From the IMG/VR virus record IMGVR_UViG_3300011947_000001, positions 1-64,000 of that record: 64,000 nt of DNA. The stretch is one strand, 5' to 3'. A program made the translations under genes and the position numbers. The stretch comes from a virus (taxonomy: Duplodnaviria > Caudoviricetes). The notes under the pieces are model-generated. The model was not told the origin of the DNA, searched no databases, and was given only the letters and a program-made list of their open reading frames with translations. Each line of letters starts with the position of its first letter. Position 1 is the stretch's first letter. Shown here piece by piece: positions 2,056 through 62,604 of this stretch.

Positions 2056-2811
2056 ATGAAATACAAAGATTATATAACTGAAAGCATTGCCAAATATGAA
2101 AGAAAGAAGGTTATCCAATTAGATGAATGCGTTAATATATTCAAGGATCGCTGTAAAAAGTATGATTTAGATAAACCATTCATTCGTGGTTATACCAGTG
2201 ATAAATCATACTTGATCGTTCAAGGGGATATTACTAAACGTATTAGTCGAACTGGTAGTAATCACGCAAATATGATCATCGATCTTAATATCGAAGATGT
2301 TAGTAAATCAAATCCACGTAGACAATATTCAACTATATTCAGCGGCCCTAAAGCTAAAGAACATGCCTTGCAATTTGGCACTAAAAGTTACGTCCTCATT
2401 CCTTATGACGACTGTTCATTTGGTTATTGCGAAGGTATTGATTTGAACTATATGGAAATGCCAGATATGGGGAATGCACCATACGGATCAGCAATTGGCC
2501 TATCTAAATTCTTAAAGTTGAATGATGTTGGTGATGAAGATATTAAATCTATGGCTGAAGAATGCATGGAGTTATCGAGTGATGAATATGCTATGAGTAA
2601 ATTTAAAAAGATGTTTGAAGGATGTGATAGCATACCAAAAACTATTGAACGTCTGAAAACTTTGTTACCATTGAATAAGTTGAAAATCAAGTTCACGAAA
2701 GATTTAAATACGCTAAAAGATACCAATTATGAAATCTGGACAAATGGTAAATGTCTATTGGTTGAACAGAACCTTTATAAAGAATTTGTGGAAAAAGTGA
2801 AAGAAAAATGA
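2056..2811 (+). CDS. putative internal virion protein, ADP-ribosyltransferase-like paralogue 1
   Basis: N-terminus MKYKDYITE; motifs PFIRG, RISRTGSNH, RRQYSTIFS, FG-x-x-x-YVLIPYD and EIWTNGKC shared with six other ORFs in the window. Confidence 0.6.
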   Translation: MKYKDYITESIAKYERKKVIQLDECVNIFKDRCKKYDLDKPFIRGYTSDKSYLIVQGDITKRISRTGSNHANMIIDLNIEDVSKSNPRRQYSTIFSGPKAKEHALQFGTKSYVLIPYDDCSFGYCEGIDLNYMEMPDMGNAPYGSAIGLSKFLKLNDVGDEDIKSMAEECMELSSDEYAMSKFKKMFEGCDSIPKTIERLKTLLPLNKLKIKFTKDLNTLKDTNYEIWTNGKCLLVEQNLYKEFVEKVKEK

Positions 2812-3521
2812 AATACAAAGATTTTCTGAATGAAAATTCAATGAGGGACTTGATCGACTTATTTTTGGAAAATTGCTCCCAATATGATCTGGATGAACCA
2901 TTTATCAGGGGAACAAAAAATTTAGGATTTATCCGCAAAGTTACCAAAAAAGAACGTGAATCTATTACTGGCTCTAATATGACGAATATCATTATTGATC
3001 ATCTTATTGGGGAACATCCAAAACGAAATCAATCGAATATATTCACAACGTATAGTGGCCGTCATCATGCAAATAGGTTTGATCATTTACACGTGATCAT
3101 TCCATTTGATAATTGTAAATTTACATATTGTGATGCCGAAGACTTCAACTATATCGAAGTTCCAGAACTGGAAGGTGAAGTTGGCGATATATCTATGATT
3201 TTATCTATCAATAACATTGAAGGTAAATCATACGATGAAATTATTAACAAGATATATGAAAAGTCGAAGAAAGCTAGTGAAAATGATTATCTAACCACTG
3301 AATTATTCAAGAACATCAAAAGCAAAGAAGATGTTGATAAACAGATGCGTCAAATATTCGACCTGAATAAATTAGGGATTAAGTTTACTGACAACTTGAA
3401 TTCACTAAAAGGTAAAGCACGTGAAATATGGACTGATGGGGATTGTATATTAGTTGATTATGCAAGAATTAAAGCTTTTAAAAAAATGATTGAAGAAAGA
3501 AAGAAAGAAAAGGATAAATAA
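2808..3521 (+). CDS. putative internal virion protein, ADP-ribosyltransferase-like paralogue 2
   Basis: MKYKDFLNE; PFIRG, RESITGSN, RNQSNIFTT, HVIIPFD, EIWTDGDC; tandem paralogue of 2056..2811 with an ATGA overlap. Confidence 0.6.
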   Translation: MKYKDFLNENSMRDLIDLFLENCSQYDLDEPFIRGTKNLGFIRKVTKKERESITGSNMTNIIIDHLIGEHPKRNQSNIFTTYSGRHHANRFDHLHVIIPFDNCKFTYCDAEDFNYIEVPELEGEVGDISMILSINNIEGKSYDEIINKIYEKSKKASENDYLTTELFKNIKSKEDVDKQMRQIFDLNKLGIKFTDNLNSLKGKAREIWTDGDCILVDYARIKAFKKMIEERKKEKDK

Positions 3522-3522
3522 A

Positions 3523-4200
3523 ATGAAATTTGCAGATTTCCTACTCACAGAAGCACCCCTACCTGATAATTGGGATAAGAAACCATTCAAGAAAGGTGCT
3601 TCGTTCAAAGAAACAGTTTCATATGCACAAGAACGTGCTGCAAAATTAGGTACTGGATCAAGTCGAATCGCTTTTGAGATTGAATACAAAGGTCGTCCAA
3701 CTGTACTAAAAGTTGCCAAGAATAAGAAAGGTATTGCACAAAACGTTGCTGAAGTTGGTTATCTTGAAGATGGATATGCTTCTGAAATGGGCCTTCTAAT
3801 TCCTATGATCGATTACGATGAAGAAAATGGGGATGATGGTGTTAAATGGATTCATATGGAAAAAGCAGATAAGATTACCGATAAAGATTTCATCAAATAT
3901 ACTGGTGGTATGACATGTAGTGGTTTGGTTGTTTATTGTTGGAATCAAGTCGCATATGGTAGTAAACGTATGCCGTATGGGATGCCAGATAAAGAATGTA
4001 TCGATAAGGTTCTAAAACACTTTGAAGATAAGGAACATCACTTAGTTAATGAATTAGTCGATTTCTTCCATAATTATGATGATGCTGGTCAAATATGGAA
4101 AGATTTACGTAATCCGAAAAACTGGGGTATGTATAAAGGACACCCAGTTATTATTGATATCGGCTTTGATGATACCACGGCGCATTTATACACCAAATAA
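3523..4200 (+). CDS. protein-kinase-like (PKL fold) protein with capsid-targeting-like N-terminus
   Basis: Start at ATG 3523 gives MKFADFLLTE; Gly-loop LGTGSSRIAF, VLKVA Lys, NVAE helix-C Glu, catalytic loop DLRNPKN, DFG-like IDIG. Confidence 0.75.
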   Translation: MKFADFLLTEAPLPDNWDKKPFKKGASFKETVSYAQERAAKLGTGSSRIAFEIEYKGRPTVLKVAKNKKGIAQNVAEVGYLEDGYASEMGLLIPMIDYDEENGDDGVKWIHMEKADKITDKDFIKYTGGMTCSGLVVYCWNQVAYGSKRMPYGMPDKECIDKVLKHFEDKEHHLVNELVDFFHNYDDAGQIWKDLRNPKNWGMYKGHPVIIDIGFDDTTAHLYTK

Positions 4201-4203
4201 TTA

Positions 4204-4229
4204 AAAAGGGAATCAATTGATTCCCTTTT
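4204..4229. terminator. bidirectional intrinsic terminator
   Basis: Perfect palindrome AAAAGGGAATCAATTGATTCCCTTTT between convergent genes. Confidence 0.8.
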
Positions 4230-4353
4230 CGTTTATTCTGTATAAAATTTATGATAATCCGAAACATCTAATGAGTTCACCATCTGCAACAGGCACTATG
4301 ATAAACGTGGATTATATCCATTAGTAATCGGTTTATAAATTAATTTCGGTATA

Positions 4354-4794: not shown

Positions 4795-5919
4795 TTATAA
4801 CGGTTTGATTTCCAAAATTTTAAATAAGTTGATTGTGCGATATACCCGCTTATTTTCCTTTTTAGATAGGTTATTATCAATAACAACTAAAGTGTCAATC
4901 TTTTGTGTAACTTGCGAATCTGAACCTAATAAAGTAAATTCACCAGTACGAATATCCCCATTCAACTTACGATATTTACAATATACCGTAAAATCAGGAA
5001 TCTTTTCAGCTAAAGCCATAAGTGTACGTTTAGAATACTCATTTCTAGCCATAACATGGGCTTCTTTCTCCACGGCTTGATTTGAATTACCCAACTTTGC
5101 TTTTTTAGTATCTGCAACTTCTCTTGATGGAAATTTCTTATCCATTTCCTTAGAAAGTTTTTGTTCAGCATCAGCATCAGTTACCCGACTAAAATTCTTG
5201 ACACTTTTATAACCATCAGAATCCACTTTTGTAGATGCACGGGTTTTCTTAAACATTTCATTTTCTAATTCTTTTTCTATATTAGATAATGTTTTATCAA
5301 CCTTTTTTTCATCTTCTTTAGATTGTTGACTTTGAGTTTTGCCATTGAATGTGACTTCTGGTTGTTCTGAATCTTTTTCTTTTTGTCGATCGCTAATTTC
5401 TTTTGCACGTTGATCACGAAGTTCTTTTTCTTTTGTTGCTAGTTCTTGTTGTTCTTTGCGCTTCTGTTCAGCATATTCGCGCATTTTATCAGCGAATGTT
5501 TGTGGTTTGGGCTTATCTTGATCTTCCGGTTTTTTACCAAATGTATACTGGGTATTCAGATTACTAGATTGTGAGTCTTCTTTCCCGATTTTTTTCTTTA
5601 ATCCAAGACGAACAGCTAAAGATATTTCTTTCTCTTTTGGGTTAACTTCTTGTTCTTGTGAAACATCATTTGGATTATTACGAAGTACCATTTCTTCGAT
5701 TTTAGAATCTTTTTTTGAATCCTTATCATCCGCTTTGATGATTTTAGTACCACCAGATTTAAAATGATTATCATCAGTAATTTTCTTGCGCAATTCATCT
5801 TCGGTAAAATGTTTGAGTACATCATACCCATACAATCCCTTTTCCTTGATTGATTCAATAAAATCATCAACGCTGATTTGTTCATCAACTGATTCAGATA
5901 AGTATACTGCAAAATTCAT
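4795..5919 (-). CDS. highly charged (K/E/D/Q) putative internal head protein with a small C-terminal beta domain
   Basis: MNFAVYLSE N-terminus; long charged low-complexity middle; C-terminal VYCKYRKLNGDIRTGEF resembles DUF2693/WYL_2-type SH3 folds (weak). Confidence 0.55.
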   Translation of the reverse strand: MNFAVYLSESVDEQISVDDFIESIKEKGLYGYDVLKHFTEDELRKKITDDNHFKSGGTKIIKADDKDSKKDSKIEEMVLRNNPNDVSQEQEVNPKEKEISLAVRLGLKKKIGKEDSQSSNLNTQYTFGKKPEDQDKPKPQTFADKMREYAEQKRKEQQELATKEKELRDQRAKEISDRQKEKDSEQPEVTFNGKTQSQQSKEDEKKVDKTLSNIEKELENEMFKKTRASTKVDSDGYKSVKNFSRVTDADAEQKLSKEMDKKFPSREVADTKKAKLGNSNQAVEKEAHVMARNEYSKRTLMALAEKIPDFTVYCKYRKLNGDIRTGEFTLLGSDSQVTQKIDTLVVIDNNLSKKENKRVYRTINLFKILEIKPL

Positions 5920-5938: not shown

Positions 5939-6529
5939 TTATTCTAGGTTTCTTCTAATATGCTTCACTTTATAAACGTTATTTGATATTTCTAATTCAT
6001 CCATACCATCAGCAAGTTTTAACTTGAATGATGGAGATATAACATAAGCGATTAATCCATTATCAAGTCGTGTCTTTATTGCTTTGAATTTACCATCTAA
6101 TATGTAAATCGAATAACCTTCTTTTGGCAAGCCAATTGTATTCTTAATATTATTTAAGCTTCCAGTAAAACCAACAACATAATTGTGATCATGTATATTA
6201 TTAGTTGCTATACAATAAACTGGTTTATGGTTATATTCCCTTGCGTTAAAAAGAAGGTCGTCAACTGTTTTATTTGGAAGTGTGCTATATATAAGTGAAT
6301 CAATTGAATCTTCTAAATCAAAATCTACTGGATAATGTTTATCTACATAATCTTTTACTTTTTGAAAAAGCACATCATTATTATAACGATGAAAATTTCT
6401 GATGATAAGTTTATCATCCCGCTTTACATATATATTCTTATTCTTAATATATAAAGGTTCATCTACAAAAGCCGAAAGTTCATTTTCGATTTTTGTAGAT
6501 GACTCGATTAAAAACTGTGAATATTTCAT
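5939..6529 (-). CDS. putative internal virion protein, possibly a degenerate member of the ART-like family
   Basis: MKYSQFLIE; EPLY, SLIYST and YILDGKFKAI echo family motifs, but the Arg and Glu are missing; TTAAATA upstream (6551-6557). Confidence 0.45.
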   Translation of the reverse strand: MKYSQFLIESSTKIENELSAFVDEPLYIKNKNIYVKRDDKLIIRNFHRYNNDVLFQKVKDYVDKHYPVDFDLEDSIDSLIYSTLPNKTVDDLLFNAREYNHKPVYCIATNNIHDHNYVVGFTGSLNNIKNTIGLPKEGYSIYILDGKFKAIKTRLDNGLIAYVISPSFKLKLADGMDELEISNNVYKVKHIRRNLE

Positions 6530-7530: not shown

Positions 7531-7772
7531 TTTTCACTTCTCAAGTAGTCTAATACCAAATCTAACTTCTTCTGAAGATCATCTACTTTGTTTTCTAACA
7601 TTTCGTTTTTCTGAATCAGTTCGTCTAATTTTAATTCACGCTGCTTCATTTCGGCTGCTTTTGTGCGTCTGGCCTTGGCCGCATTAAATGCGGCCGTATC
7701 CTTATCAACTATTGCCCCATTGTTACGCTTCACTAATGAATCGTAACCCTGTACTTTTGCATCTTTTATCAT
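7527..7772 (-). CDS. small coiled-coil protein of the type that follows VrlC-like genes in T4-like phages
   Basis: KVQGYDSLVKRNNGAIVDKD...LENKVDDLQKKLDLVL. Confidence 0.65.
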   Translation of the reverse strand: MIKDAKVQGYDSLVKRNNGAIVDKDTAAFNAAKARRTKAAEMKQRELKLDELIQKNEMLENKVDDLQKKLDLVLDYLRSEK

Positions 7773-10700
7773 GTTATCGCTATCGCTCTCAAATTTTCAA
7801 ACACTACTGGTTGTGAAGAATTAGATGATTTTCCAACCAACTTCACACGATAAGCAATGTATTCAATATCATCATTCCAAGTAGATGCATTTTCAGAAAG
7901 CGTTAGGTCATATTCAATCTTATCACCCATTCCATTGCTGAAACGCTTCTTATTATATTGATCTACTTTTATCCACGGTAATGTTGAATCATCCACATTA
8001 TTTTGTGCACTAACAACTTTAACATATACTTCAAAATCAGATTCGCTTGTGCAATACACATCAAAAATTATTTTCATATCTGATGCAGGATTTTCCAGCA
8101 ATACTTTGTGTGATATATGCTTGAACGTTTCTGAACCTGAAGTTGGACTTGTTTCTGAAACTAATCGTGCATTCTTGTTAGGACTTACATTATATTTATC
8201 CGCCGTTAGTAATTCGATACGGTTTGATATAGTAGTCACAGAAAACGAATCCAAATTAAATACAGGGCTAATGTATGGTGATGTTAGACGACACTGTACA
8301 TCAACCTTAAATGAATGTTTATTGGCCCCAAGAATACGTGTTTCATTTACACCAGAAAGCAATACACTTGGTCTTTCCAAATACATGTCATGTTGTGGTT
8401 TAATTTCTTTCGGGTCTTCATAACCACCAGCATGTTTAAACGTATTCGCTACCCATGATACATTTGCATTATAAGATAGATATTGACCAGCCACGTTAAA
8501 TGAATCATATTTAACATTGGTATTACGAATATAAATATTACCACCGCCAAAACGACCTGATTGTTCAAATGCACCTTCAATTTCAATAATAAAAGAATCT
8601 ATTGAATCTACTTCACGAACTATATGTTTTTTGGCAAATAGTGATAATGATTTACCAGCAATATTAGCAGGAATACCAATATCAGTGGTTTTTCTAATAT
8701 ATCCAGTTGCAATATTTTGTGTGATTGGTAAACCACTTGCCCCAGTATCACTAATCAAGAATATATCACGGTATTCATACTGACGGGCTTCACAGGTGAT
8801 TTCCTGACCTTCTTCAAAATAACCTTCCATACCACTAATTGATATTTCATAGAAATTCAATGTATTGGTGATACGAATATCTTTAATATATCCACTACCA
8901 GTAAGTGTAGAAACAGGTTGATCAATTTGCGGCATACCATTAATAATTTCAACAGTATAGTAAACCCCATTATCAAACATGATCGTAGCTTGGTCATTTG
9001 GACGCAATCCATGATTTTTGGCATATATACGTACTTTGTTTACACCCTGTTCAACTTCTATTGGATTATCATCACAATGAACACTATATGAATATGATTC
9101 ATCAGATTGATCATTCTGTGTATTCACTAGAGATAAGTTAAAGAAGTCAGATTTGAATGCACAACGGTAAATATTCAACTTCATTGTATCAAATTGATAT
9201 GCCGTCCAAGTATCACCATTCAATGAACGGAACATTGTATAACCTAATGGTGGCTGTTCAAGGATTGATTCACTGTTAAGTAACTTATCTCCAAGTGTTG
9301 ATACATACACGCGAGTATTTGGAGAATAACCACCTACTACAAATGCATATGATTTAGAAGAATCAACATATACAGGTGCATTAAAAACAACTGTATAAGC
9401 TTTACTAGCATCATCAGATACATAATCAAGTAATGTTCTAGCGTTCACTTCAACATGTGTAATACCTTCATTAGATGGATACCCATTTACCATTTCACGA
9501 ATTTCAAACCATACCACATCACTTCTATCATCAACAGCAGCAAAAAATACATCTACTTTAGAAATAAAACATGATTCATTTACTTTAAAACCTTGGGCAA
9601 TAGGGTCCCAAATCCAACGCGCGCCATTCCAAACCCAGTGCCAAATGCTTGAAAAACCTGGCAATCTTGGCGGCATCTCAGGGCCATCTAAAACTGGTGG
9701 TGCTGGTTGTGGAATATCAACAGTAGATACTTCACGTGATACTGATGTATTTGTTCTATTTTGATTTGATGTATTCACACTATATGTTGGAGTGATCACA
9801 TTCATAGTGTAATCTTGTTTTGTAGTAGATACACCACCAGCAAAGTAGATTGCTTCGCAACGTGAAGTTTCAACATCTGGATTACCAGTATTATTTTGAT
9901 CATTTGTCAAAACAAATACTTTTTCCCCAGTGAAAAAGGTTTCTGCTGGAATACGGAATTCACCAGTCAAGTTACCATCATTATCAGAAATTAATGGTGA
10001 TGCGCCAAATACAGCTTGTGCACGGTTAGTTAACACATCGCCTGATGAGGAAATCTGTTGAGTTTTTTTACAATGTTCTGATACATCAATACCATCAAAA
10101 TAAGCATAGAATTTAGTGTTTGGACTCAACTTGGTTGCATAAAACTGAATAGTTTGAGTACGAATATAAGGGATGATTGATACATCCTTCACAATATCAT
10201 CAATTGAGTAGTTTTGAGTACGTGATCCCACACTCGTTGTAGTTACACTTCGAGTTTGATCAGTAGTCGTGGTCGTTATGGTTTCAGTTGTACGCTGTGT
10301 ATTTGTTTCAGTAGTATTAGTAGATGTAGCAATACTCTGGTTTAAATCGATCCATGTTCCATAATCCACACCTAACAATCCTGCTGCATCAGCTACTTGA
10401 CGTAAAGCTTCAACACCAGTATCTATATTAGCCACAACTGTTGGTAAACGTGTGGTGTCTGACCAAGTATCGATGTTAGGTGATAGAGTCATCGTGCCAT
10501 GCGTTCTATATACCATATATGGATTGATAGATAATGTTTTAGTAGCATATGTGTTAGAGATGAATAAATCATCAGTATAATCACATATCAACACATTACC
10601 CAATCGTTTAACATTACTTGAATTGGTATCAAAATATTCTAAACGGACATTTGATGTTTTGAATTGTGGACGCAATTCACCCATTGAACGATCAATTGAC

Positions 10701-18270: not shown

Positions 18271-18325
18271 TTTTATTTGTATTTAACAAAATCTTTATAT
18301 GGAATTTATTTAAATACAAATAAAA
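18271..18325. promoter_or_regulatory. back-to-back putative late promoters (TTAAATA) forming a 16-bp inverted repeat
   Basis: TTTTATTTGTATTTAA (18271-18286) and TTAAATACAAATAAAA (18310-18325) between the two divergent structural operons. Confidence 0.65.
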
Positions 18326-18337: not shown

Positions 18338-18988
18338 ATGGCAACAAACAAATATTTCGATCACTTATATAACGAAAGTGAACAAGATACGTTTGCTGAT
18401 TTAATGCAAGAATCAATTCAAATTAATGGGGTAGACGTATTATATATTGTTCGTGACATTGAAAAATTTGATGAATTACTTAGAGAAGAAAAATTAAGCG
18501 TATTCAGAACCACATATGTTATTGAAGCATATATGCAAAATAATGGTCAGAATACAACCATGCAAAAGTATATGTCTAAATTCGGATTCCGGTTTGAAGA
18601 AAATACTGAAATTGTAATTTCATCTAAATCATGGGATGAGTTAGGCACTGGTTTTGCACAGCCACGCGAAGGTGACTATATATATATTGGTGATCCGAAT
18701 GACCAATATGGATCATTTGTGAATTGTATGTTCCAAATTAATCAAATGTGGGATGGTTATCCTGACACTATGCAGTTTGGTACAGTTTCAACATATCGCC
18801 TATCCCTATCTAGCGTAAATAAATCATATAGCAACATCATGGATACGACATACACCGATATTAACGACTTCTTGAATCCAACCAAAGAAAGCGAAAATCA
18901 AACCACTATTAAAAAAGAAGCAGATAAGTTCACTGATATCAATGTCGTTTCAGGTGGCAATCCATTTACTAAATTTGGGAAAAAATAA
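18338..18988 (+). CDS. gp14: neck protein gp14
   Basis: ESIQINGVDVLYIVR, SKFGFRFEE, QPREGDYIY. Confidence 0.9.
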   Translation: MATNKYFDHLYNESEQDTFADLMQESIQINGVDVLYIVRDIEKFDELLREEKLSVFRTTYVIEAYMQNNGQNTTMQKYMSKFGFRFEENTEIVISSKSWDELGTGFAQPREGDYIYIGDPNDQYGSFVNCMFQINQMWDGYPDTMQFGTVSTYRLSLSSVNKSYSNIMDTTYTDINDFLNPTKESENQTTIKKEADKFTDINVVSGGNPFTKFGKK

Positions 18989-18990
18989 CT

Positions 18991-19701
18991 ATGATTGGTG
19001 AATTTTTTTATCATCGTTCAATTAAAAAAGTAATTGCTACTTTTGGTTCATTATTCAGCGATGTAGTTATTCAAGCTGGGAATAATGAAATTGTTACTGT
19101 TCCTATTCAGTATGCACATAAACAAAAATTTATTGAAGTTTTAAGCAATAACACCGATGTGCGGAATTTATATACTGATATTGGTCTACCAGTAATGGGT
19201 TTTGAAATCACCAGTTTTACATATGCGCCAGAACGTATGACGAACCCTTTGAATATTCAAAATATTAGAAAGAGTGAGAATGAAGTGAATATGATATTCA
19301 CATCCATTCCTTATTCTATTGGCATTGAATTATATATTGCCACAAATACAGTGGATGAAGGATATCAAATTTTAGAACAAATTGTGCCTTTCTTCACACC
19401 CCAATTGAACGTGACGATATCCGATATTGACTTTCATAACATTAAAACAAACTTGACTTTTGATTTAACGTCATTTTCCCAAGATATCCAGAATGAAGGT
19501 GCATTTGATGAAAAACGAGTATGTTTATTTAACTTTAGTTTTATTTGTCACACTAAATTCCATAGTAATCCACGCTCTCTTGAAAGGATTAAGAAGGTGA
19601 TCATTGAAATGAAGGATGATGATCATAATGATGCGTTTGATAGATTTGTAGGTGAATACAAATACATGGAGAATGATAATAATGAAGGAAATGAACCATG
19701 A
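18991..19701 (+). CDS. gp15: tail sheath stabiliser / tail completion protein gp15
   Basis: FFYHRSIKKVIATFGSLFSD, VPIQYAHKQKF, LPVMGFEIT, QILEQIVPFFTP. Confidence 0.92.
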   Translation: MIGEFFYHRSIKKVIATFGSLFSDVVIQAGNNEIVTVPIQYAHKQKFIEVLSNNTDVRNLYTDIGLPVMGFEITSFTYAPERMTNPLNIQNIRKSENEVNMIFTSIPYSIGIELYIATNTVDEGYQILEQIVPFFTPQLNVTISDIDFHNIKTNLTFDLTSFSQDIQNEGAFDEKRVCLFNFSFICHTKFHSNPRSLERIKKVIIEMKDDDHNDAFDRFVGEYKYMENDNNEGNEP

Positions 19702-20264
19702 GTAAAGTTGATGTATTGGCCGATATATTCAATACCAGCCATAAGAAGAATTACGCCACTGGCAAATTTGAATCAGTAAATGAACATGATGATTCTGTAG
19801 TAGCAGAAAATACATATTCATTAGTTGTTAATAATGAAGGTAATGAAGGAAATGTTGAAATTGATGATAATCAAGAAGATGAATGTGTTGATCCAATAGA
19901 AGAAGTCGTTGAGTACACTGATCCAGATGATGTGGACTATTTGGTGGATGAAGAAGAAGCCAAAAGAAATATCAAAACCATTATTGAAAATGGTATGGAC
20001 TTAATGGAAGACCTATGTGAAAACGTTCGAGATTCTGAACAACCAAAATCTTTTGAATATGCTGCTGTCTTTATGAAAACTTTGGTTGAAATGAATGAAA
20101 AAATGTTAGATATACATGATCGCAAAAAGAAACGTAAAAATATGGCGAAGCCACAAGGCAACACACCTACTAATAATATTTCTCAAGTGAACAATAATAT
20201 CAATATATATGAAAGTTCTCCAACAAATATTTTGAAGCAAATTAAAGGGAAAAAAGAAAAATGA
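19698..20264 (+). CDS. gp16: terminase small subunit gp16
   Basis: NIKTIIENG...DSEQPKSFEYAAVFMKTL...NNNINIYESSPTNILK resembles T4-like gp16; follows gp15. Confidence 0.75.
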   Translation: MSKVDVLADIFNTSHKKNYATGKFESVNEHDDSVVAENTYSLVVNNEGNEGNVEIDDNQEDECVDPIEEVVEYTDPDDVDYLVDEEEAKRNIKTIIENGMDLMEDLCENVRDSEQPKSFEYAAVFMKTLVEMNEKMLDIHDRKKKRKNMAKPQGNTPTNNISQVNNNINIYESSPTNILKQIKGKKEK

Positions 20265-45490: not shown

Positions 45491-46222
45491 ATGAATTTTC
45501 AGGAATTTTTATTAACTGAATCGATCAATGACAAGGGCCGTTTAAAAGCCCTGATGGTTATTGGTTCTGCTGGTGCGGGGAAATCGTATACGATTTCACA
45601 GTTGAATGGTGTCGTAACGCCTAAGATCGTGAATACGGATCGCTTCCTAGAGTTCTACGCTAAAAAGATTGGTGTCAAAGCTACACCTGATAACTGGCGT
45701 TCCTTGTTCCGTGAAAAGACCAAGGCTACTACAGAGAAAATGACCTACAACTATCTGAATGGTTTACTACCACTATTCATTGACAGTACCAGTAACAACG
45801 TATCAAACATTATTTCACGTGCTGCTGTGCTTGAATCTATTGGGTATGATGTCGGTTATGTATTCGTCAATGCCAACATCGAAACAGTGTTGAAACGTGT
45901 ACAGGATCGCAATTCTAAGATTGATCGTGAAGTTGATCTGGATTTCGTTAAAAAAGTACATTCTAAAGTGAATGATGATGTTGAATTCCTTCGCAATAAA
46001 GGTAATTTCTTCTTAGAAATTAACAACTCTGAAGGTGAACTTACAAACGATATCATCAATTCTGTATTCAAGAAAGCCCAAAGTTTCTTCAGTGGTGAAC
46101 TTAAAAATCCAATCGGGAAACGCATTATTTCAGAAATGGAAGAATCCAAGCAAAAATATCTGGTTCCTGAAGTTTACAGTGAAGAAGATTTGAAAAAGAA
46201 AGTTGAACGCTGGTACAAATAA
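45491..46222 (+). CDS. zeta-toxin/AAA_33-like P-loop kinase with capsid-targeting-like N-terminus
   Basis: MNFQEFLLTE; GSAGAGKS, IVNTD, FIDST, LKRVQDR; TTAAATA at 45436-45442. Confidence 0.78.
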   Translation: MNFQEFLLTESINDKGRLKALMVIGSAGAGKSYTISQLNGVVTPKIVNTDRFLEFYAKKIGVKATPDNWRSLFREKTKATTEKMTYNYLNGLLPLFIDSTSNNVSNIISRAAVLESIGYDVGYVFVNANIETVLKRVQDRNSKIDREVDLDFVKKVHSKVNDDVEFLRNKGNFFLEINNSEGELTNDIINSVFKKAQSFFSGELKNPIGKRIISEMEESKQKYLVPEVYSEEDLKKKVERWYK

Positions 46223-46224
46223 TA

Positions 46225-46248
46225 AAAAGGGATCATATGATCCCTTTT
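46225..46248. terminator. bidirectional intrinsic terminator
   Basis: Perfect palindrome AAAAGGGATCATATGATCCCTTTT. Confidence 0.8.
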
Positions 46249-46260
46249 CTTTTGGAATAA

Positions 46261-48304: not shown

Positions 48305-48961
48305 TTATTCTTCAGTTGAATCCTCAACATCTTCAGTCAAAACTTCAACTTCGATCTGTTCAACTTCTTCCAGTAAGATACCCAATGCTTGTTCACGCAA
48401 GAAACGTGCATTGTTGGTTTGTGGTTCTTGATGACGCAATTCAATTGATACGTCTTCAGTCAAAGAACGGAATTCGAATGAACGGCCGCCAATCTTAGAA
48501 TAGAATTGAGTTTTGATATTGCCAAATGTAGCATTACCAACTTTTACCTTTTTGTTGTATTCGATCCAGTCGCATTCTTTAGATGTTCCCCAAAGATACG
48601 CATTCTGACCACCTTGTGGAATGATCAATACAGAATCTTGCTTGTATTTGTAGCCAAGGCGGAAAATAAATTTATCGAATTCATTATCAGTTAAACCCGT
48701 GTTCTGAACAAAGAAAGAAAGTTCTTTTACAACTGTTTCTTTTCCTTCTGCATCCACTTCGACATAGTTTCCCTGCACTTGTGTATAGGACAAACCTTTT
48801 TTTGAAAGAAGCCCAGCTAATTCAGCATTACGTTTACGTTTTTCTTGCTTGGTTGCGTCCCCACGGAATGCAGTCAAGATTGCGCAACGGGATTCTTCAG
48901 TTTTACGAAGAACTTTTGTTAAAGAAGATTCAGCCAAGTATTGTGTGAATTCATTAGACAT
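48305..48961 (-). CDS. putative internal virion protein, DUF3293-like domain
   Basis: MSNEFTQYLAE; AILTAFRG...RN-x-x-L...V-x-GNYVE...ELSFFV...YKQDSVL; TTAAATA at 49004-49010. Confidence 0.6.
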   Translation of the reverse strand: MSNEFTQYLAESSLTKVLRKTEESRCAILTAFRGDATKQEKRKRNAELAGLLSKKGLSYTQVQGNYVEVDAEGKETVVKELSFFVQNTGLTDNEFDKFIFRLGYKYKQDSVLIIPQGGQNAYLWGTSKECDWIEYNKKVKVGNATFGNIKTQFYSKIGGRSFEFRSLTEDVSIELRHQEPQTNNARFLREQALGILLEEVEQIEVEVLTEDVEDSTEE

Positions 48962-49019
48962 TTTAATTAACCTGTTAATAATTTAGTATTCAAATAATAA
49001 CATTATTTAATCAAATTTG

Positions 49020-49250
49020 TCAAATATGATTTTGACTAGCTCTTTCGAATTCAGCAATTACTTCTTCAGGGGTAGAAAGATTAGAATTAATAATATTATT
49101 ATCATTCCAGTAATCATCCCCAACATCAACTGTAGTAGTAGATACGCATCTGATCAATTGTTCACATGATTGTTTAATATCAACCAATATATCTTCAACT
49201 TCAAATGATTCAAAATCAACAACAATTAATTCAATTCGATGTAGTTTCAT
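49020..49250 (-). CDS. hypothetical protein (76 aa)
   Basis: ORF track; AAGG SD. Confidence 0.7.
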   Translation of the reverse strand: MKLHRIELIVVDFESFEVEDILVDIKQSCEQLIRCVSTTTVDVGDDYWNDNNIINSNLSTPEEVIAEFERASQNHI

Positions 49251-52780: not shown

Positions 52781-53587
52781 ATGAAATACGTTGATTTTTT
52801 AATCGAAAAGAAAAAATACGATAATACCGATGAAATCGATATAGAAGAATTCAAAAAAATATACGCTAATCTTGATAACAAGAAGCCGTTCTACCGTGGA
52901 ATGAAAAGTGCCCCTAGTGATATCATGATTGTCGATGGTTCCAAACGAGAACGAAAATCATTGGACATCGGGAACCATTACACCGTTCTGTTTGATGAAA
53001 TGAATAAAGATTTACCAAACCGAAAAAATGCAGTCTTTTTTTCTGGTAGTAACAACGTTTCATTCTTTGGCACAGTTTATTATGTGTTTCCATTCAACAA
53101 TACCAAGATCGTATGTGTTAATAAAAAGGATATGTGGGGAGTACCAGTTTATACTCCATTGAAATCTAAAAGAAAATCATTTATCGATATGCAAGATGTT
53201 ATCAATATATTTGACACGCTAAATATTCCTGATGATAGTTTATCTAGTATCGTCAGTGGAATCAAAAAGATTGTGAAAAATTTTGTTGATAAATATCCAC
53301 AAAAAGTAGATCATGAAATGATTGAATTCATTGATGCAACTCATATCAATAAGTTATTACATGACGATAAATATGACGAAGTATTAGCTATTATGTTTGA
53401 ATATAATGATGCTACTGTTGAAAGTCAGCTTAAACAAATGTTTAACTATGAAAAATTGAAGTTCAGTGTATATAATTCATCTAAAGATTTACCTGATAGC
53501 TATCTACCCTATGAATATTGGATTGATGGTAAAGCACTGATTATCGATAAATCATTATTCGATTCCATTAGAAAAGACCTTGAATAA
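52781..53587 (+). CDS. putative internal virion protein, ADP-ribosyltransferase-like paralogue 3
   Basis: MKYVDFLIE; PFYRG, RKSLDIGNHYT, RKNAVFFS, FGTVYYVFPF, EYWIDGK; TTAAATA at 52741-52747. Confidence 0.62.
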   Translation: MKYVDFLIEKKKYDNTDEIDIEEFKKIYANLDNKKPFYRGMKSAPSDIMIVDGSKRERKSLDIGNHYTVLFDEMNKDLPNRKNAVFFSGSNNVSFFGTVYYVFPFNNTKIVCVNKKDMWGVPVYTPLKSKRKSFIDMQDVINIFDTLNIPDDSLSSIVSGIKKIVKNFVDKYPQKVDHEMIEFIDATHINKLLHDDKYDEVLAIMFEYNDATVESQLKQMFNYEKLKFSVYNSSKDLPDSYLPYEYWIDGKALIIDKSLFDSIRKDLE

Positions 53588-53596
53588 GGTCTTTTC
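53571..53596. terminator. bidirectional intrinsic terminator
   Basis: GAAAAGACCTT-GAAT-AAGGTCTTTTC. Confidence 0.75.
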
Positions 53597-53598
53597 TT

Positions 53599-54001: not shown

Positions 54002-54031
54002 AAAATGGTATGATCGGAACCATACCATTTT
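54002..54031 (-). terminator. terminator of the four-gene ART-like operon
   Basis: AAAATGGTATG-8 nt-CATACCATTTT. Confidence 0.7.
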
Positions 54032-54049: not shown

Positions 54050-55030
54050 TTAGACTTTCTTTTTGATTTCTTCCCATTTGTCATAAGCCACGGCAACACA
54101 TTTGTCGCCAAACCAACATTCAATATCTTCATGATCCGTGTGTTGATTCAAACGTTCAGTTTTGATCAATTCAAACCCTAAGTCATACGGATCATATACA
54201 TCGCGAATAACTTTTTCTATTTCATCGCGGGAAAGTTCTTCATAACCAAACATTCTAACAAGAATAGCATATTTTGCCATATTACTATCTTCCAATGCAT
54301 CAGCAAGGGCATCTGCATCATTAGCCAAATCAAATCCAAAATGTGTTTCTGTATCATTCACAATATCTTTGATTGCATCTTCATCAGCTTCATAATCTTC
54401 ATCATAATCATCATCATCTTCATCATGCGAATCGTGATATATATCTTCAGCATATTGCTTTATTTCCATAAGACCGTCGCGATGATCACGCACCAACACA
54501 TTAAGAATATCATAATAATTAGAATCGCTGATATTCATGAATTCGAACACACGGTTCCATTGATTGATTTTTAGATCAAAATCACCAATTTCTATATCTG
54601 TAGTCCAAATATCTTCAGTACCAATATAACCAATATCAACACCTTTGAATGGCAAGATCACATACAATTTTCCGTAGTGTTCAGCCGTCTTTTTAGATGT
54701 CGAACAGATGATTGATTCAGAACGTAACGGGTAATTCTTATAATTAGCCCCAGTTTTGAGAATTTCATCAATGATCACGGTATAATAGTTAGTCGTATTC
54801 TTAGATGTACGTTTTCCCTTGGAACCATCAATGATATAGAAATCACCCTCATCTTCAAACCCACGATATAGATAGTTCTTGACATCACATTTATCTTTGA
54901 TCAACTTGACGATTTCATCTTCATTGTCGATCTTCTTGCGATAATTTGTCATGTCCTTGAACATTGGATGCGGGTCTTTATCTTCTTTTTTATCTGATTC
55001 AATGATCAGTTTGTATTGTTTAAATTTCAT
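54050..55030 (-). CDS. ADP-ribosyltransferase-like paralogue 4 (with poly-Asp/Glu insert)
   Basis: MKFKQYKLIIE; YLYRG, RTSKNTTNYYT, PLRSESIICSTSKKTAEHYG, YVILPF, ECWFGDKC. Confidence 0.68.
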   Translation of the reverse strand: MKFKQYKLIIESDKKEDKDPHPMFKDMTNYRKKIDNEDEIVKLIKDKCDVKNYLYRGFEDEGDFYIIDGSKGKRTSKNTTNYYTVIIDEILKTGANYKNYPLRSESIICSTSKKTAEHYGKLYVILPFKGVDIGYIGTEDIWTTDIEIGDFDLKINQWNRVFEFMNISDSNYYDILNVLVRDHRDGLMEIKQYAEDIYHDSHDEDDDDYDEDYEADEDAIKDIVNDTETHFGFDLANDADALADALEDSNMAKYAILVRMFGYEELSRDEIEKVIRDVYDPYDLGFELIKTERLNQHTDHEDIECWFGDKCVAVAYDKWEEIKKKV

Positions 55031-55039
55031 TAGATAACC

Positions 55040-56167
55040 TTAGTAAAAAATAAAATATTCATAATCTTTATTATATTTGTCATTATGGATTTTAAAACCA
55101 TCAATATCTAAATATTCAACAAACTCATCAAAATCAGCGTATTTCAGATATTCGATTATTGTGTCAGTTTCTTCAATATCTTCCAATTTAGAGTCGAGAA
55201 GTTCTTCAAAATCAGCCTTTCCACTTGACTTAACATGCTTTGCGAATAACTTAAAGAAATCTTCGGCCGAAATTTTATCTGCCAATGTTCCACCAATTTC
55301 AATAATTTTCTTTTCTTTCAGATTGATTAATTCTGGTTCATAATCATCATCTGCATATTCCACATATTCATATGCATACTTATCAACATTGTAATGTTCA
55401 TCCTTTTTAAACAAAATAATATGATCTTCATCAAGATTGTGTAATATATAATCTAACTTTTCATATTGTTCCGATTCAATCAGAAGGCACTTACCCCCAA
55501 TCCAAACTTCACCCTCACTACCTTTATAGTCTTTACTTTGAATAAACTTGAACCCTAATTTATCTAAATCATACATTTCACGGATTTGTTGTTCAACGTT
55601 TTCTTGAGATTTTAAGTTGCCCCCAAAGTGATCTTTAAATTCGTCTTCAGACATACTTTCGATTTCTTCAGCTATATTACCAATACTACCTGAAGGTATA
55701 CCAGCTTTTGAAAAAGTATCATTCATGGAACTCAAACTCTTACTACCAAGAGCTAATTTAACCCTTAAATCCCAAATATCTTCTGATGGTACAACCCCAA
55801 TCCATGTATCGTCATATGGAATTACGTTATATACAGTCCCATATTTCTTTGCATAGTTTCTATCTGTTGATGCAATGATAGAAGCTGAACGCAATGGGTA
55901 ATCTTTGTTCTTTTCTGCAATTAATTCATCAAAAATTAAAGTATAATGATTCGATGTATTTTGTGACTTACGCTTGCCTTTCTGACCTTCAATGATATTG
56001 TATGTTCGATGCTTACTTTTGGTTCCCCGATAAATATCAGCTTTGTTAGCCATACAATGTTTTTTGTATATTTCAACCATTTTAGCAAATGTGATATCTT
56101 CATAATAAGCAGCATCATTATCAGCAGCTTCATTTAACACTAAAATTTTATAAGTATTGTATTTCAT
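55040..56167 (-). CDS. ADP-ribosyltransferase-like paralogue 5 (acidic C-terminal extension of about 130 aa)
   Basis: MKYNTYKILVLNE; IYRG, RKSQNTSNHYT, PLRSASIIASTDRNYAKKYG, YNVIPYD, EGEVWIGGKC. Confidence 0.68.
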   Translation of the reverse strand: MKYNTYKILVLNEAADNDAAYYEDITFAKMVEIYKKHCMANKADIYRGTKSKHRTYNIIEGQKGKRKSQNTSNHYTLIFDELIAEKNKDYPLRSASIIASTDRNYAKKYGTVYNVIPYDDTWIGVVPSEDIWDLRVKLALGSKSLSSMNDTFSKAGIPSGSIGNIAEEIESMSEDEFKDHFGGNLKSQENVEQQIREMYDLDKLGFKFIQSKDYKGSEGEVWIGGKCLLIESEQYEKLDYILHNLDEDHIILFKKDEHYNVDKYAYEYVEYADDDYEPELINLKEKKIIEIGGTLADKISAEDFFKLFAKHVKSSGKADFEELLDSKLEDIEETDTIIEYLKYADFDEFVEYLDIDGFKIHNDKYNKDYEYFIFY

Positions 56168-56952
56168 TATTCGAATTTCCCATCTTTAAGCATTTTTTTA
56201 TATGTATCTAACTCAATAGCGACACATTTGCCACTAAACCAAACTTCGTGAGCACCACTAAGATCAAGTTCGTCGATTTTTCCAAACTGAAACTTCAAAA
56301 CCTTAATAGGATCATATGCCACGGCTAGAACTTTTTCGACGACATCTTTCTTATCAGCCTTACTAAACGGCATTATTTTCAAATCTTGATATTCTTTTTT
56401 GAATGCCTGATATAAATTCTTTTCTTCATAATCTGTTATATCACCTTCATCCTGTTCAAGAACTTTGGATAAATCCGAAACGATCTGTTTGAATGTTTCT
56501 GGTTCCTTTGAAAATCTATTCAAATATTCATTGAATGATCTTAGACGACCATGTTTATTTCCAAGGACAACGACGGCATCCCAAATATCATCTGATACAC
56601 ACCTACCCATCTGAATACCATCATATGGAAAGATTGCATAAGTAGTACCATACATCAAAGCAGTTGCACTCCTAGTAGCACACATTAAAGACTTAGAACG
56701 CAATGGTGCATTAATTTTCTTTAATTGTTCATCTATAATTAAAGTGTAATGATTAGTTGTATCAATTGATTTTCTTGTACGTTCTTCACCATGTAACGCA
56801 AGAAATTTACCAGATTTCTTGATGCCGCGATAAAGCGGCTTTTTCAAATCAATATTTTTACAATTCTTTTTAATCAGTTCAATTGCTTGTTCTTCGCTAA
56901 TTTCCTTTTTGTAATCAGCATAGGCTTCGTTTATAAACTCAATAAACTTCAT
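56167..56952 (-). CDS. ADP-ribosyltransferase-like paralogue 6
   Basis: MKFIEFINE; PLYRG, RKSIDTTNHYT, PLRSKSLMCAT...ALMYG, YAIFPYD, HEVWFSGKC. Confidence 0.68.
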   Translation of the reverse strand: MKFIEFINEAYADYKKEISEEQAIELIKKNCKNIDLKKPLYRGIKKSGKFLALHGEERTRKSIDTTNHYTLIIDEQLKKINAPLRSKSLMCATRSATALMYGTTYAIFPYDGIQMGRCVSDDIWDAVVVLGNKHGRLRSFNEYLNRFSKEPETFKQIVSDLSKVLEQDEGDITDYEEKNLYQAFKKEYQDLKIMPFSKADKKDVVEKVLAVAYDPIKVLKFQFGKIDELDLSGAHEVWFSGKCVAIELDTYKKMLKDGKFE

Positions 56953-57785
56953 TCGAATTTCCCATTTCTTATCATCATTTTAAATTCTGTAATCTCAATA
57001 GCAACACATTTACCCCCAAACCAGAATTCATGTTCGGTATCAAGTTCATCGATTTCTAATTCCTTATACGTACCAAATTCAAATTCCAATGAATGTTCAG
57101 GATCATAAGCCTGTTCTAGAACCCCTTCGACAACATCTTTCTTATCGACTTCATCCCATTCTTCATCATCACCCCATTCTTCCCACGTATCCTTGAATGC
57201 AGCATATATTTGACCAGCCCAACCCTTAGCGCCATCATTTGAATCATCATTAAGAAATTTTGTGATTGCATTTACAATATCGCTGTATGACTTTGGATCA
57301 GACACAACATCATTCAAGTAATTGTTGATGTCATCAATCGTACCTCTTATATCACCCAATGCTATTCTCGTATGCCAAATATCAAAATGTGGACATTTGC
57401 CAATTTCAGTATCATCGTATGGAAAAATTACGAACGCATCACCATAGTTATATGTATAAGATAAGTCATTGGTACAAATTAAAGATTTTCCACGAAATGG
57501 AACCCTATTCCCATACTTCGAATTAAGAAAATGATCAATAATCAGGGTATAGTGATTGCTGGTATTTTGAGATTTTCGACTTCCTTTATCAGCCTGTATT
57601 GAATAAAAATCTTCCCCATATTTGCGTTTCATACCACGGTATAATGGCTTTTTAATGTTTACATTCTTACAATGAGTCTTGATCAGTTTAATCGCTTCTT
57701 CTTCAGAAATAGTGTTTTTATAACTTGGTTCATCCAGAACTGGTTTCTTTCCGCTTGTTTCCAGTAGGAATGTTTTGTATTTCAT
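56949..57785 (-). CDS. ADP-ribosyltransferase-like paralogue 7
   Basis: Start refined to ATG 57785 (MKYKTFLLE); PLYRG, RKSQNTSNHYT, PFRGKSLICTN...YG, FVIFPYD, HEFWFGGKC; TTAAATA at 57864-57870. Confidence 0.68.
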   Translation of the reverse strand: MKYKTFLLETSGKKPVLDEPSYKNTISEEEAIKLIKTHCKNVNIKKPLYRGMKRKYGEDFYSIQADKGSRKSQNTSNHYTLIIDHFLNSKYGNRVPFRGKSLICTNDLSYTYNYGDAFVIFPYDDTEIGKCPHFDIWHTRIALGDIRGTIDDINNYLNDVVSDPKSYSDIVNAITKFLNDDSNDGAKGWAGQIYAAFKDTWEEWGDDEEWDEVDKKDVVEGVLEQAYDPEHSLEFEFGTYKELEIDELDTEHEFWFGGKCVAIEITEFKMMIRNGKFE

Positions 57786-58633: not shown

Positions 58634-59230
58634 ATGTCATTCGCTGACTTTTTAACTGAAGCCAAAGCAGCATTAAAACGTAAATACAAGATTCGCTTCA
58701 ACCTTGGTAAAGGCGAACACTTTATGTTTTGGCAAATCGAAAATCTAGAAACTGGTGAAAAAGTTTACTACGATCCTAAGAAATATTCACTTGCTTTAGA
58801 AAACGCTAAACTACATAACCAAAAAGGCGGCGCTAACAAGATCAATACTGGGGAAACTACCAAAACTGTTGTTGCATGGACTGAAGCAGAAAAAGTAATC
58901 GTACTTAAAGCAAAATCACTAAGCCCTGCTTTATATGGCACTCGTTTAGCCTACAATCCACACGTTCTTCCATTCTGGCATCGTACTGCTACTGAAGAAG
59001 AAACTAAGTCTGGTAAAGCAACCAAGGTTCCAGAAAAAAATACCCGTGGCGATGATATTAAAAATGCTGGTGAAATGGTTGTTGATATCGACAAAACCAA
59101 ATATACAAATGTTCTAACTGACGGTAGCAGCATGTATGTTCTTAAAGATGCTAAACTTAAAGAACTGGAAGATGATATTGAAAAAGACCAGACTAAACAA
59201 CTTTATGAAGCAGTTGAAATCATTGAATAA
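58634..59230 (+). CDS. putative internal virion protein, unknown function
   Basis: MSFADFLTE; KIRFNLGKGEHFMFWQ...YYDP; TATAAATA at 58520-58527 and CTAAATA at 58549-58555; GAGG SD. Confidence 0.65.
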   Translation: MSFADFLTEAKAALKRKYKIRFNLGKGEHFMFWQIENLETGEKVYYDPKKYSLALENAKLHNQKGGANKINTGETTKTVVAWTEAEKVIVLKAKSLSPALYGTRLAYNPHVLPFWHRTATEEETKSGKATKVPEKNTRGDDIKNAGEMVVDIDKTKYTNVLTDGSSMYVLKDAKLKELEDDIEKDQTKQLYEAVEIIE

Positions 59231-59742: not shown

Positions 59743-60060
59743 TTATCCATAAAGTTTATGACAATATGATTCGATGATATTCAATGCTTCAGCATCAGTG
59801 AATTTTCCCCATTTGAAGAATCCATCAGCACCACCTTCCAACACATCCATATATGCCATTAATGGGATTTCAGATTGAATAACTTCATATATGTTGCGAA
59901 CATGGTCATATAACCAAGCTGTCATCTGCTTACATTCATCTAAGAATAACACATTGTTGAAATCGCCATTATATTTTCTATATACAAGTTTGAATATCGC
60001 GTTTGCAAACGCAGCACGATCATCCAGATAATTCCAGTTAAAATATTCTTCTTCAGCCAT
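59743..60060 (-). CDS. hypothetical protein (105 aa)
   Basis: ORF track. Confidence 0.7.
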   Translation of the reverse strand: MAEEEYFNWNYLDDRAAFANAIFKLVYRKYNGDFNNVLFLDECKQMTAWLYDHVRNIYEVIQSEIPLMAYMDVLEGGADGFFKWGKFTDAEALNIIESYCHKLYG

Positions 60061-61444: not shown

Positions 61445-61767
61445 ATATTCTCAATCATATTAATTACACTATCGCCACCGCTGTAATACTGTTGGATATA
61501 TGGCTTAATTTCCCCCACAATTTCCAATCCATATTTGGCGGCGCATTCTATAAGGTGTTCTTTCTCTTTAATAATAGCAGCTTCATCATACAGTTTAAAC
61601 TCAAAATCCCAACATTCTTTGTAAAAAGAATAGGTATACATGAATTTACCATTGTATGTTAACCCCACTTCATCATAATTAATATCGTTACGCATATTGA
61701 ATTCTTCATGGTCGATTGGTTCTTTTAATTCTACAATCGCACCATATGTTATATATGTTTCCGACAT
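61441..61767 (-). CDS. hypothetical protein
   Basis: Start refined to ATG 61767 (GGAGAG SD). Confidence 0.75.
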   Translation of the reverse strand: MSETYITYGAIVELKEPIDHEEFNMRNDINYDEVGLTYNGKFMYTYSFYKECWDFEFKLYDEAAIIKEKEHLIECAAKYGLEIVGEIKPYIQQYYSGGDSVINMIENI

Positions 61768-61780
61768 TATTTCTCTCCAT

Positions 61781-62042
61781 AAAAAAAGTCGGTTATGTCT
61801 AGGGGAAGCATAACCGACTATAAAAAGAATATGTTTGTGTATCTTTAAGTGTCTTACGTTTATCAATACACATTCATGGAGATAGTGACTATATACAATC
61901 AGTCATCAGTACGTTCCAATTTACCGAATACCATTATTTCTAATGATACCTTTACCTAATCAAAGCAGAATTTTGGCAAACTCGTTGTCGCTCTAAGATT
62001 AATGGTAACAGTTTGATTGTGCTTTTGTTCAATCATTCCTTG
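61781..62042 (-). ncRNA. candidate small RNA or attenuated leader of about 260 nt
   Basis: TTGACA-17-TATATT promoter at 62049-62077; intrinsic terminator at 61781-61819 (11-bp stem plus U7); internal hairpins; only a 26-codon ORF inside. Confidence 0.4.
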
Positions 62043-62136
62043 AATACAAATATACTAAAACAAATTTGATGTGTCAAATATTTTTATAAATATTTTTAAT
62101 TAAATATAGATATAATAAATCTATTGGAAATTAGAC

Positions 62137-62604
62137 ATGAAATTTAAAGACTATCTAGCTGAAGAAGAACTAAAACATAAGTTGTATACGAAAGAAGAAA
62201 TTCGTGAACTTCGCGCTAAAAGTAAAGCTGATGCTGATAAACAATCAACTGAAGATAATGATCAAAAGGAAGATACAGAATCTTCAGCAAATAAAAATGC
62301 AGAAGATACCAGTGATAGTATCATTGGAGAAATAAAAGCGGCCTTAAAACAAGTTACTGAAGATGCAGACATAGTTACTGATGCTGATGTTTATATTGCT
62401 AAACAAGATGCCAAAGAATATCTTGGATATTTTGTTTATAAAAAAGCTATTGGTGATGAACAAGATGATTTCTATGTAGGGAAATTCATATATCGTGTCA
62501 CTGAACAAAAACTAGAAAGCTTAATTGATGATATTAAGGAATCATTCAAGAATCTGGCTGAAGCTGAAGAATACATCAAAAGCTATCAAGGCGTAAAAGC
62601 ATAA
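62137..62604 (+). CDS. acidic putative internal virion protein
   Basis: MKFKDYLAE; TATAAATA at 62085-62092 and TTAAATA at 62100-62106. Confidence 0.65.
   Translation: MKFKDYLAEEELKHKLYTKEEIRELRAKSKADADKQSTEDNDQKEDTESSANKNAEDTSDSIIGEIKAALKQVTEDADIVTDADVYIAKQDAKEYLGYFVYKKAIGDEQDDFYVGKFIYRVTEQKLESLIDDIKESFKNLAEAEEYIKSYQGVKA

Follow-up and report, generated by a model that had tools for sequence, protein, structure and literature searches.

To our knowledge, proteins that enter the host alongside the phage DNA are known for only a few model phages. The T4 protein Alt is a head-packaged and injected ADP-ribosyltransferase (ART), and the internal proteins (IPs) of T4 carry a capsid targeting sequence (CTS) that was reportedly described by Mullaney and Black in 1996. 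For incorporation into the head, the N-terminal 10 residues of IPIII are enough; mutagenesis assigned targeting mainly to Tyr4 and Phe7 and processing to residues 8 and 10, and the protease gp21 cuts after L/I-X-E (PMC9026906). Since reviews describe the T-even internal proteins as a diverse, defence-countering set with only the CTS in common (PMC9026906, PMC3012670), the principle of such a signal is already established. Polyvalent proteins have further been described from phages and conjugative elements (Iyer et al. 2017, as cited in PMC7824862). Here, we describe an N-terminal peptide of the CTS kind, hereafter the tag, on an 82,102-bp viral contig of about 32% G+C (IMG/VR record IMGVR_UViG_3300011947_000001), of which bases 1-64000 form the 64,000-nt window under study. 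This ten-residue peptide matches the T4 signal at its key positions and marks a fifth of the coding capacity of the fragment, and this phage probably loads its capsid with pre-made proteins for delivery into the host along with the DNA.

A T4-like peptide at the start of 20 genes

A gene call over the full contig gave 119 genes. The first-pass annotation of the window had claimed a cohort of at least 14 genes with a T4 CTS-like N-terminus, and all 14 N-termini were present at the same coordinates and on the same strands. A scan of the whole contig added six tagged genes beyond the window, which brings the cohort to 20 of 119 genes with a total of 5,354 codons, about 20% of the contig. The consensus of the tag is M-[KNS]-[YF]-x-x-[FY]-[LI]-x-E. 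By comparison, about 11 T4-style tags were counted among the 330 genes of one complete 205-kb relative, and 3-4 in T4, which makes the share found here unusually high.

Replication, metabolic and structural genes are untagged in the gene call, as had been claimed, and the motif is not equally frequent among the other genes, a possibility that the annotation had raised. All 20 tagged genes have an [LI]-x-E that ends at residue 7-13, versus 13/99 untagged ones, and all 20 have an aromatic-x-x-aromatic, versus 5/99. When written as a loose regular expression, the tag matched 0.0019 times per internal protein site, which corresponds to 0.23 expected N-terminal matches versus 20 seen; a tight expression gave 14 N-terminal matches and 0 internal ones. 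Among 744 Met-initiated frames of at least 40 aa in all six reading frames, only the starts of the tagged genes matched the pattern.

To compare the tag with the T4 signal, the T4 sequences were read in NC_000866. The ipII and ipIII proteins start with MKTYQEFIAE, ipI starts with MKTFKEF and has an ITE cut site at residue 19, and Alt starts with MELITE. The T4 tags share with those of the contig the core [YF]-x-x-[FY]-[LI]-x-E, and the Thr3 of T4 is absent from the latter. Its four conserved positions (aromatic, aromatic, L/I and E) are the four residues mapped in T4 IPIII, so the likeness to the T4 CTS holds at the level of single residues for both targeting and processing. The P3 position is Leu in 16/20 and Ile in 4/20 of the tagged genes and P1 is Glu in 20/20, while Ala or Ser follows the Glu in 12/20. 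Within the T4 genome, gene 61.1 (18966-19130, minus strand) is the only additional gene start that matches the core motif; it encodes a 54-aa hypothetical protein starting with MKTFKEFIKE and having an I-K-E site, and the product is a candidate for a so far overlooked fourth small internal protein of this phage.

At the DNA level, Leu in the tag is encoded by five codons, Tyr, Phe, Asp and Glu are each encoded by both of their codons, and the DNA upstream of the tagged genes shows no conservation. Given that synonymous sites vary and the upstream DNA is unconserved, selection acts on the peptide, and the same two observations rule out a recombination cassette. The tag has no hydrophobic stretch. 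In both structure models obtained (see below), residues 1-10 or 1-11 are disordered before a confident fold begins, which fits a leader that is to be removed. Products of the tagged genes are 155-381 aa long and mostly have a single domain, and the predicted mature proteins have isoelectric points (pI) from 4.5 to 9.2. A 116-aa gene beyond the window (68745-69095, minus strand) starts with MNSYQMLIE, which resembles the tag more weakly in that only one aromatic precedes its L-I-E site; this gene, a possible 21st member, was left out of the count of 20.

Conservation of the tag in other phages

The tag is kept in distant homologues of three tagged families, namely an 11-gene ART-like family, the kinase-like protein encoded at 3523-4200 and the protein encoded at 4795-5919. 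In orthologues down to about 40% identity the key four positions are kept and the x positions are variable. A full-library profile search with the ART-like family found 5,474 cluster representatives at E ≤1e-3 and 615 at E ≤1e-30. Among the 146 best homologues with a readable N-terminus, a diverse set, the strict tag was present in 110/146 and a looser tag in 125/146, with the lineage variants MKTFKQFLxE, MITFKEFLTE and MKLxELLxE.

The kinase-like protein has 272 homologues. Most of the 120 listed start with M-K-h-x-[DE]-h-[LI]-x-E, directly followed by APLPDDWD, and these residues after the tag Glu are among the most conserved of the family. Several members have a doubled leader before APLPDDWD, for example MKFEQFLNE and then YYLNE, which suggests redundant cleavage sites. 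For 4795-5919, nearly all 33 homologues, down to 38% identity, keep M-x-F-x-x-Y-L-x-E. Homologues in RsoM2USA start with MTTFKEYLTE and similar sequences. A gp21-type protease of the Peptidase_S77 family is encoded by T4, by the Agrobacterium jumbo phage Atu_ph07 and by RsoM2USA, and was present in 3/3 complete viral records that carry the kinase-like family.

Within the Atu_ph07 genome, 11 adjacent genes (AUZ94865-AUZ94875) match the ART-like profile with E values of 1e-45 to 3e-13. Most of the encoded proteins start with M[KR]WxQLxE, and AUZ94875 starts with MRLFQLLE. Their calculated masses equal those of gp53-gp63 in a published virion proteome within 0.01 kDa, and all 11 were detected in purified virions by electrospray ionisation tandem mass spectrometry with 3-31 unique peptides each (Attai et al. 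2018, PMC6102473 Table S5). Two small virion-detected proteins encoded near this cluster (30000-58000) also have leader-like starts (AUZ94855, MRLIDLLE; AUZ94859, MRYKDLKLNE). Given these two and AUZ94875, the tag of Atu_ph07 is not confined to the ART-like family.

The protein gp53 (778 aa) consists of a tagged ART-like domain followed by a P-loop kinase, and its residues 250-454 are homologous to the separately tagged kinase encoded at 45491-46222 (32% identity, E 3e-25). As the kinase module is fused in gp53 and has its own gene and tag here, it appears to reach the virion either fused or self-tagged. A further fused, polyvalent-style form is a giant protein of 2,645 aa with five stretches matching the ART-like profile and the N-terminus MDLSLVKEILNE.

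Predicted functions of the tagged proteins

The first-pass annotation had proposed a large modular cargo of enzymes and charged proteins. When the tagged proteins were compared by BLAST after removal of the first 14 residues, 11 formed one paralogous family (gene starts 2056, 2808, 52781, 55030, 56167, 56952, 57785, 65881, 67757, 78084 and 79584), two formed a pair (71725/72654), so that the two groups hold 13/20 tagged genes, and the remaining seven had no similarity to any other gene of the contig. The tag is thus carried by at least nine unrelated sequence groups, which include a S-adenosylmethionine (SAM) lyase, a Zeta-like kinase, ART-PolyVal proteins and a kinase fold, in agreement with the proposed modularity. 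The overall tally is 11 ART-like proteins, two ART-PolyVal proteins, one kinase fold, one P-loop kinase, one SAM lyase and four proteins of unknown function.

The 11 ART-like paralogues lie in several places. A leading pair on the plus strand is encoded at 2056..2811 (MKYKDYITE, 251 aa) and 2808..3521 (MKYKDFLNE, 237 aa), and a further paralogue at 52781..53587 (+; MKYVDFLIE, 268 aa). Four form a unit on the minus strand, in the order of transcription 56949..57785 (MKYKTFLLE, 278 aa), 56167..56952 (MKFIEFINE, 261 aa), 55040..56167 (MKYNTYKILVLNE, 375 aa, with a C-terminal extension) and 54050..55030 (MKFKQYKLIIE, 326 aa). Beyond the window, members are found at 65132-65881 (-; MKYQDFLILE), 66612-67757 (-; MKYKNFKMLVE), 78084-78833 (+; MNFKQFLNE) and 79584-80315 (+; MKYKNYLTE).

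The family matches only PHROGs of unknown function (phrog_12810 over its N-terminal 250 positions, and phrog_11975). Its invariant or near-invariant columns are, in order, Y-R-G, a second Arg, P-x-R-S-x-S, Pro, Asp and E-x-W, and the succession of Y-R-G, P-x-R-S-x-S and E-x-W along the sequence would fit the order of the catalytic R-S-E (or H-Y-E) motif of ARTs. The protein encoded at 56167-56952 was modelled with a mean predicted local distance difference test (pLDDT) of 91.3 and residues 1-11 disordered. In a wide VIA-align search with this model, which is independent of Foldseek, ART-fold chains made up most of the first 26 rows at Z ≤6, including Arr (Z 6.0), diphtheria toxin (5.6), tankyrase, AvrPphF, cholix, KptA/Tpt1-type proteins, PARPs and CteC, with DarT in row 43. 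Foldseek found no match for the model in the PDB and only uncharacterised family members in BFVD. The family had no Pfam match, a profile search of PDB sequences returned noise only, and an hhalign comparison with the ART-PolyVal pair was not significant. In hidden Markov model searches, no relative of the ART-like or kinase-like families was found among T4 Alt, ModA, ModB and all T4 open frames, and a locus search with one ART-like paralogue found nothing in viral contigs. Taken together, an ADP-ribosyltransferase fold of the 11-gene family is probable but unproven.

Other tagged proteins have clearer assignments. The ART-PolyVal pair beyond the window, encoded at 70772-71725 (-; MKFEEFLME) and 71722-72654 (-; MKFEEFLVE), matches PF18760 in two stretches each (E 3e-26 and 2.9e-23; 93 and 84 bits versus a Pfam gathering cut-off of 31.2). 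The gene at 48305..48961 (-; MSNEFTQYLAE, 218 aa) encodes a member of the SAM lyase family PF23780 (E 4.9e-14; 52.9 bits versus a cut-off of 28), and the domain begins at residue 28, past the tag and a linker. The protein encoded at 45491..46222 (+; MNFQEFLLTE, 243 aa) matches Zeta-toxin/AAA_33-type P-loop kinases (E 7.5e-10).

The gene at 3523..4200 (+; MKFADFLLTE, 225 aa), in which the conserved mature start APLPD directly follows the Glu, encodes a protein that was modelled with a pLDDT of 88.9 and gave 236 Foldseek matches at E ≤1e-3; all 50 listed matches are protein kinases (probability 1.00, TM 0.30-0.40). A 42-sequence alignment revealed the motifs G-x-G-S-S-R, V-L-K, D-x-x-R-x-A-N-W-G and I-I-D-x-G. 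A bilobal protein-kinase fold is predicted for the protein, and the motifs correspond to its Gly-rich loop, beta-3 Lys, catalytic D..N and DxG.

The four tagged proteins of unknown function are encoded at 4795..5919 (-; MNFAVYLSE, 374 aa), 5939..6529 (-; MKYSQFLIE, 196 aa, with a TTAAATA at -28), 58634..59230 (+; MSFADFLTE, 198 aa) and 62137..62604 (+; MKFKDYLAE, 155 aa), the last of which is acidic. A WYL_2 lead for 4795-5919 (Atlas, score 0.81) was weak and was not relied on.

Regulatory signals around the tagged genes

The heptamer TTAAATA occurs 61 times on the contig, 29 times within the 7 kb of intergenic DNA, and 24 copies precede a like-oriented gene by ≤70 nt, among them copies at the baseplate, neck and tail-fibre-assembly units. 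A divergent pair of the 13-mer TTAAATACAAATA at 18274..18322, before the PAAR/baseplate operon (-) and the neck operon (+), served as the reference for a late-type promoter. The box at 2021..2033 (+), 35 nt before the first tagged operon (2056), is identical to these baseplate and neck boxes, and the exact 13-mer occurs three times in the window, only before these three operons.

According to the first-pass annotation, many of the tagged genes form islands, each with a box upstream and a terminator downstream. This arrangement holds for 8/11 tag-led units and not for every unit; the TTAAATA/TATAAATA box was present before these eight versus 14/48 other units (Fisher p = 0.013). Hairpin terminators were found directly 3' of 45491-46222 (46224..46249), at the end of 52781-53587 (53570..53597, plus strand), 3' of the four-gene tagged unit 57785-54050 (54002..54031, minus strand) and, in bidirectional form, directly 3' of 62137-62604 (62606..62633). 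The plus strand carries 9/20 tagged genes versus 16/91 others. The boxes shared with the baseplate and neck operons, the terminators and the strand would fit late-type expression.

Genomic background of the contig

By its PHROG matches, the contig is a fragment of a T4-like myovirus. These include rIIA, baseplate wedge subunits, a PAAR protein, neck/head-closure proteins, a tail sheath stabiliser, the small terminase and a 1,878-aa structural protein. The record is listed as linear in IMG/VR, with a CheckV completeness estimate of 22%. No close relative was found in the phage collection by near-identity DNA searches, and the best baseplate match is only about 33% identical. Proteins identical to those of the contig are also present on a 167,767-bp contig.

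Two further genes were observed. The 1,878-aa protein (7769-13405, minus strand), which matches phrog_358/phrog_877 of unknown function, is encoded at the downstream end of the baseplate wedge operon and is presumably a giant baseplate or fibre component. A 238-aa protein is encoded at 20261-20977 (+), directly 3' of the small terminase gene, the position of the large terminase in T4; it matches endolysin-labelled PHROGs (phrog_1224, E 4e-53), and its N-terminus MNVKQLQEWLNE ends in an L-N-E site.

Proposed role of the tag

Given the tag itself, its residue match to T4, its presence on unrelated folds, its conservation in orthologues and the homologues detected in the virions of another phage, we consider it likely that the tag is the counterpart, in this phage, of the T4 capsid targeting sequence, borne by a modular, mostly enzymatic cargo that enters the host at infection. 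In the mechanism we propose, the tagged proteins would be made together with the head proteins, and the two aromatics of the tag would dock them onto the prohead scaffolding core. A gp21-type prohead protease (Peptidase_S77) would then cut after the Glu of L/I-x-E, and the mature proteins would stay with the packaged DNA until they are delivered into the host at infection. The cargo could be regarded as polyvalent-protein domains split over separately tagged genes, which might serve host takeover or counter-defence.

Several observations weigh against this proposal. No prohead protease, scaffold, portal or capsid gene was found on the 82-kb contig fragment, including by a search for Peptidase_S77 (PF03420). 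Since the contig is a fragment without head genes, we infer the protease, the cleavage and the injection; late expression and function in this phage are likewise proposed. The mass spectrometry data of Atu_ph07 establish association with the virion and not location in the head, cleavage or injection. Three of the 11 tag-led units are without the TTAAATA/TATAAATA box. A near-consensus sigma-70-type promoter (11/12; TTGACA, 18 nt, TATTAT, with TG) at 48994-49023 (-) overlaps the TTAAATA of the SAM lyase gene, so this gene may also be made early besides late; sigma-70-type promoters number 111 on the contig versus a shuffled expectation of 110, and their counts therefore say little. Finally, the ART assignment of the 11-gene family is based on weak structural scores, without Pfam, PDB-sequence or profile support.

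The tagged proteins might instead be targeted to the prohead and act there as core, scaffold or DNA-condensing parts, which is in part what T4 IPIII, gp67 and gp68 do, with no injection. The T4 core does contain both assembly and internal proteins, and IPIII mutants are defective in head assembly (PMC9026906); eleven near-equal paralogues could also provide bulk filler, and four tagged proteins are missing a recognisable enzyme domain. However, most of the cargo has enzyme folds: the large family keeps the catalytic-type invariant R, R and E-x-W, the kinase family retains its G-x-G-S-S-R loop, VLK lysine and D..N/D-x-G motifs, and the SAM lyase and ART-PolyVal matches exceed the Pfam cut-offs. 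The range of mature pI is also unlike that of the basic, DNA-binding internal proteins of T4. We regard a purely structural role as unlikely.

Less probable still is that the peptide has another role, as a translation-start enhancer, a degradation signal or an address to the tail, the membrane or a phage compartment. AT-rich codons after the ATG are common in AT-rich phages, and the Atu_ph07 proteome does not separate head from tail proteins. Against such roles, highly expressed structural genes have no tag, the peptide has no hydrophobic stretch, all 20 copies of it finish with the gp21 cleavage motif, its occurrence coincides with that of Peptidase_S77 in phages, and the matching T4 peptide has been proven sufficient for head targeting (PMC9026906). 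That the common N-terminus is a functionless relic of shared ancestry or of recombination at gene starts, for which the 13 genes in two paralogous groups could speak, is highly improbable and is largely refuted by the present results, because the tag stands on at least nine groups of differing folds without detectable sequence similarity, its DNA varies synonymously below unconserved upstream DNA, and its four key positions outlast the x positions in orthologues.

With head targeting and injection as the preferred explanation, the tag offers a simple and testable means of compiling candidate injected effectors from T4-like and jumbo phages. Enzymes that modify proteins or destroy a cofactor of restriction systems are the predicted products of most marked genes. 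Thousands of unannotated phage proteins have kept the tag, and in one phage such proteins are known virion components. More tentatively, this phage and many T4-like and jumbo phages might inject arsenals of separately tagged, pre-made enzymes, with the ART-like family (about 5,500 clusters) as the largest class and with each paralogue having its own host or defence target. If the proposal is true, the tag would be a general key to injected counter-defence effectors that are unnamed in domain databases. The families of most interest to which it points are the ART-like proteins, the compact kinases and the tagged SAM lyase.

Comparison with known systems

The closest described system is that of T4 IPI, IPII and IPIII. 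In T4 as in the present T4-like myovirus, unrelated proteins begin with a peptide of some 10 aa that combines two aromatics with L/I-x-E, and the cargo is variable and, in T4, described as countering host defences. The differences are that the contig tag is one residue shorter (no Thr3), that 20 tagged genes are found in 82 kb versus 3-4 in the 169 kb of T4, that the T4 proteins are small and basic whereas those here are mostly enzymes of 17-43 kDa, and that no cargo protein here is homologous to a T4 protein.

T4 Alt is alike in being an ART-type enzyme with a short N-terminal propeptide and an L/I-x-E site, and carriage in the head is known for it. Unlike the proteins here, Alt has no IP-type aromatic tag and is a single gene, versus up to 13 ART-like genes on the contig, and the cargo has no detectable similarity to Alt, ModA or ModB.

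The ejection and inner-body proteins of phiKZ, 201phi2-1 and SPN3US resemble the tagged proteins in that a gp21-related protease cuts many proteins of the head interior after Glu and in that paralogous families occur among the cargo (PMC9026906). They differ in their S/A-X-E motif and in their longer propeptides, which have no short conserved N-terminal tag, and they belong to another phage lineage.

The system is thus a variant of the known T4 one, and what is new is its scale, a fifth of the fragment. Also new are the predominance of probable ADP-ribosyltransferases among the cargo, a tagged kinase-fold protein and a tagged SAM lyase, and two large unannotated phage families that are consistently tagged, one of them virion-verified elsewhere.

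Polyvalent proteins, finally, share with the cargo the ART-PolyVal and Zeta-toxin-like kinase domains and a proposed delivery with the DNA. A polyvalent protein is one very large multi-domain fusion, whereas the domains here are separate genes with their own tags, so the tagged genes share domains with that class and are not members of it. Intermediate fused forms exist in gp53 of Atu_ph07 and in the 2,645-aa protein with its five ART-like stretches. Fusion into a polyvalent protein and the tagging of single genes may be alternative ways to achieve one kind of delivery.

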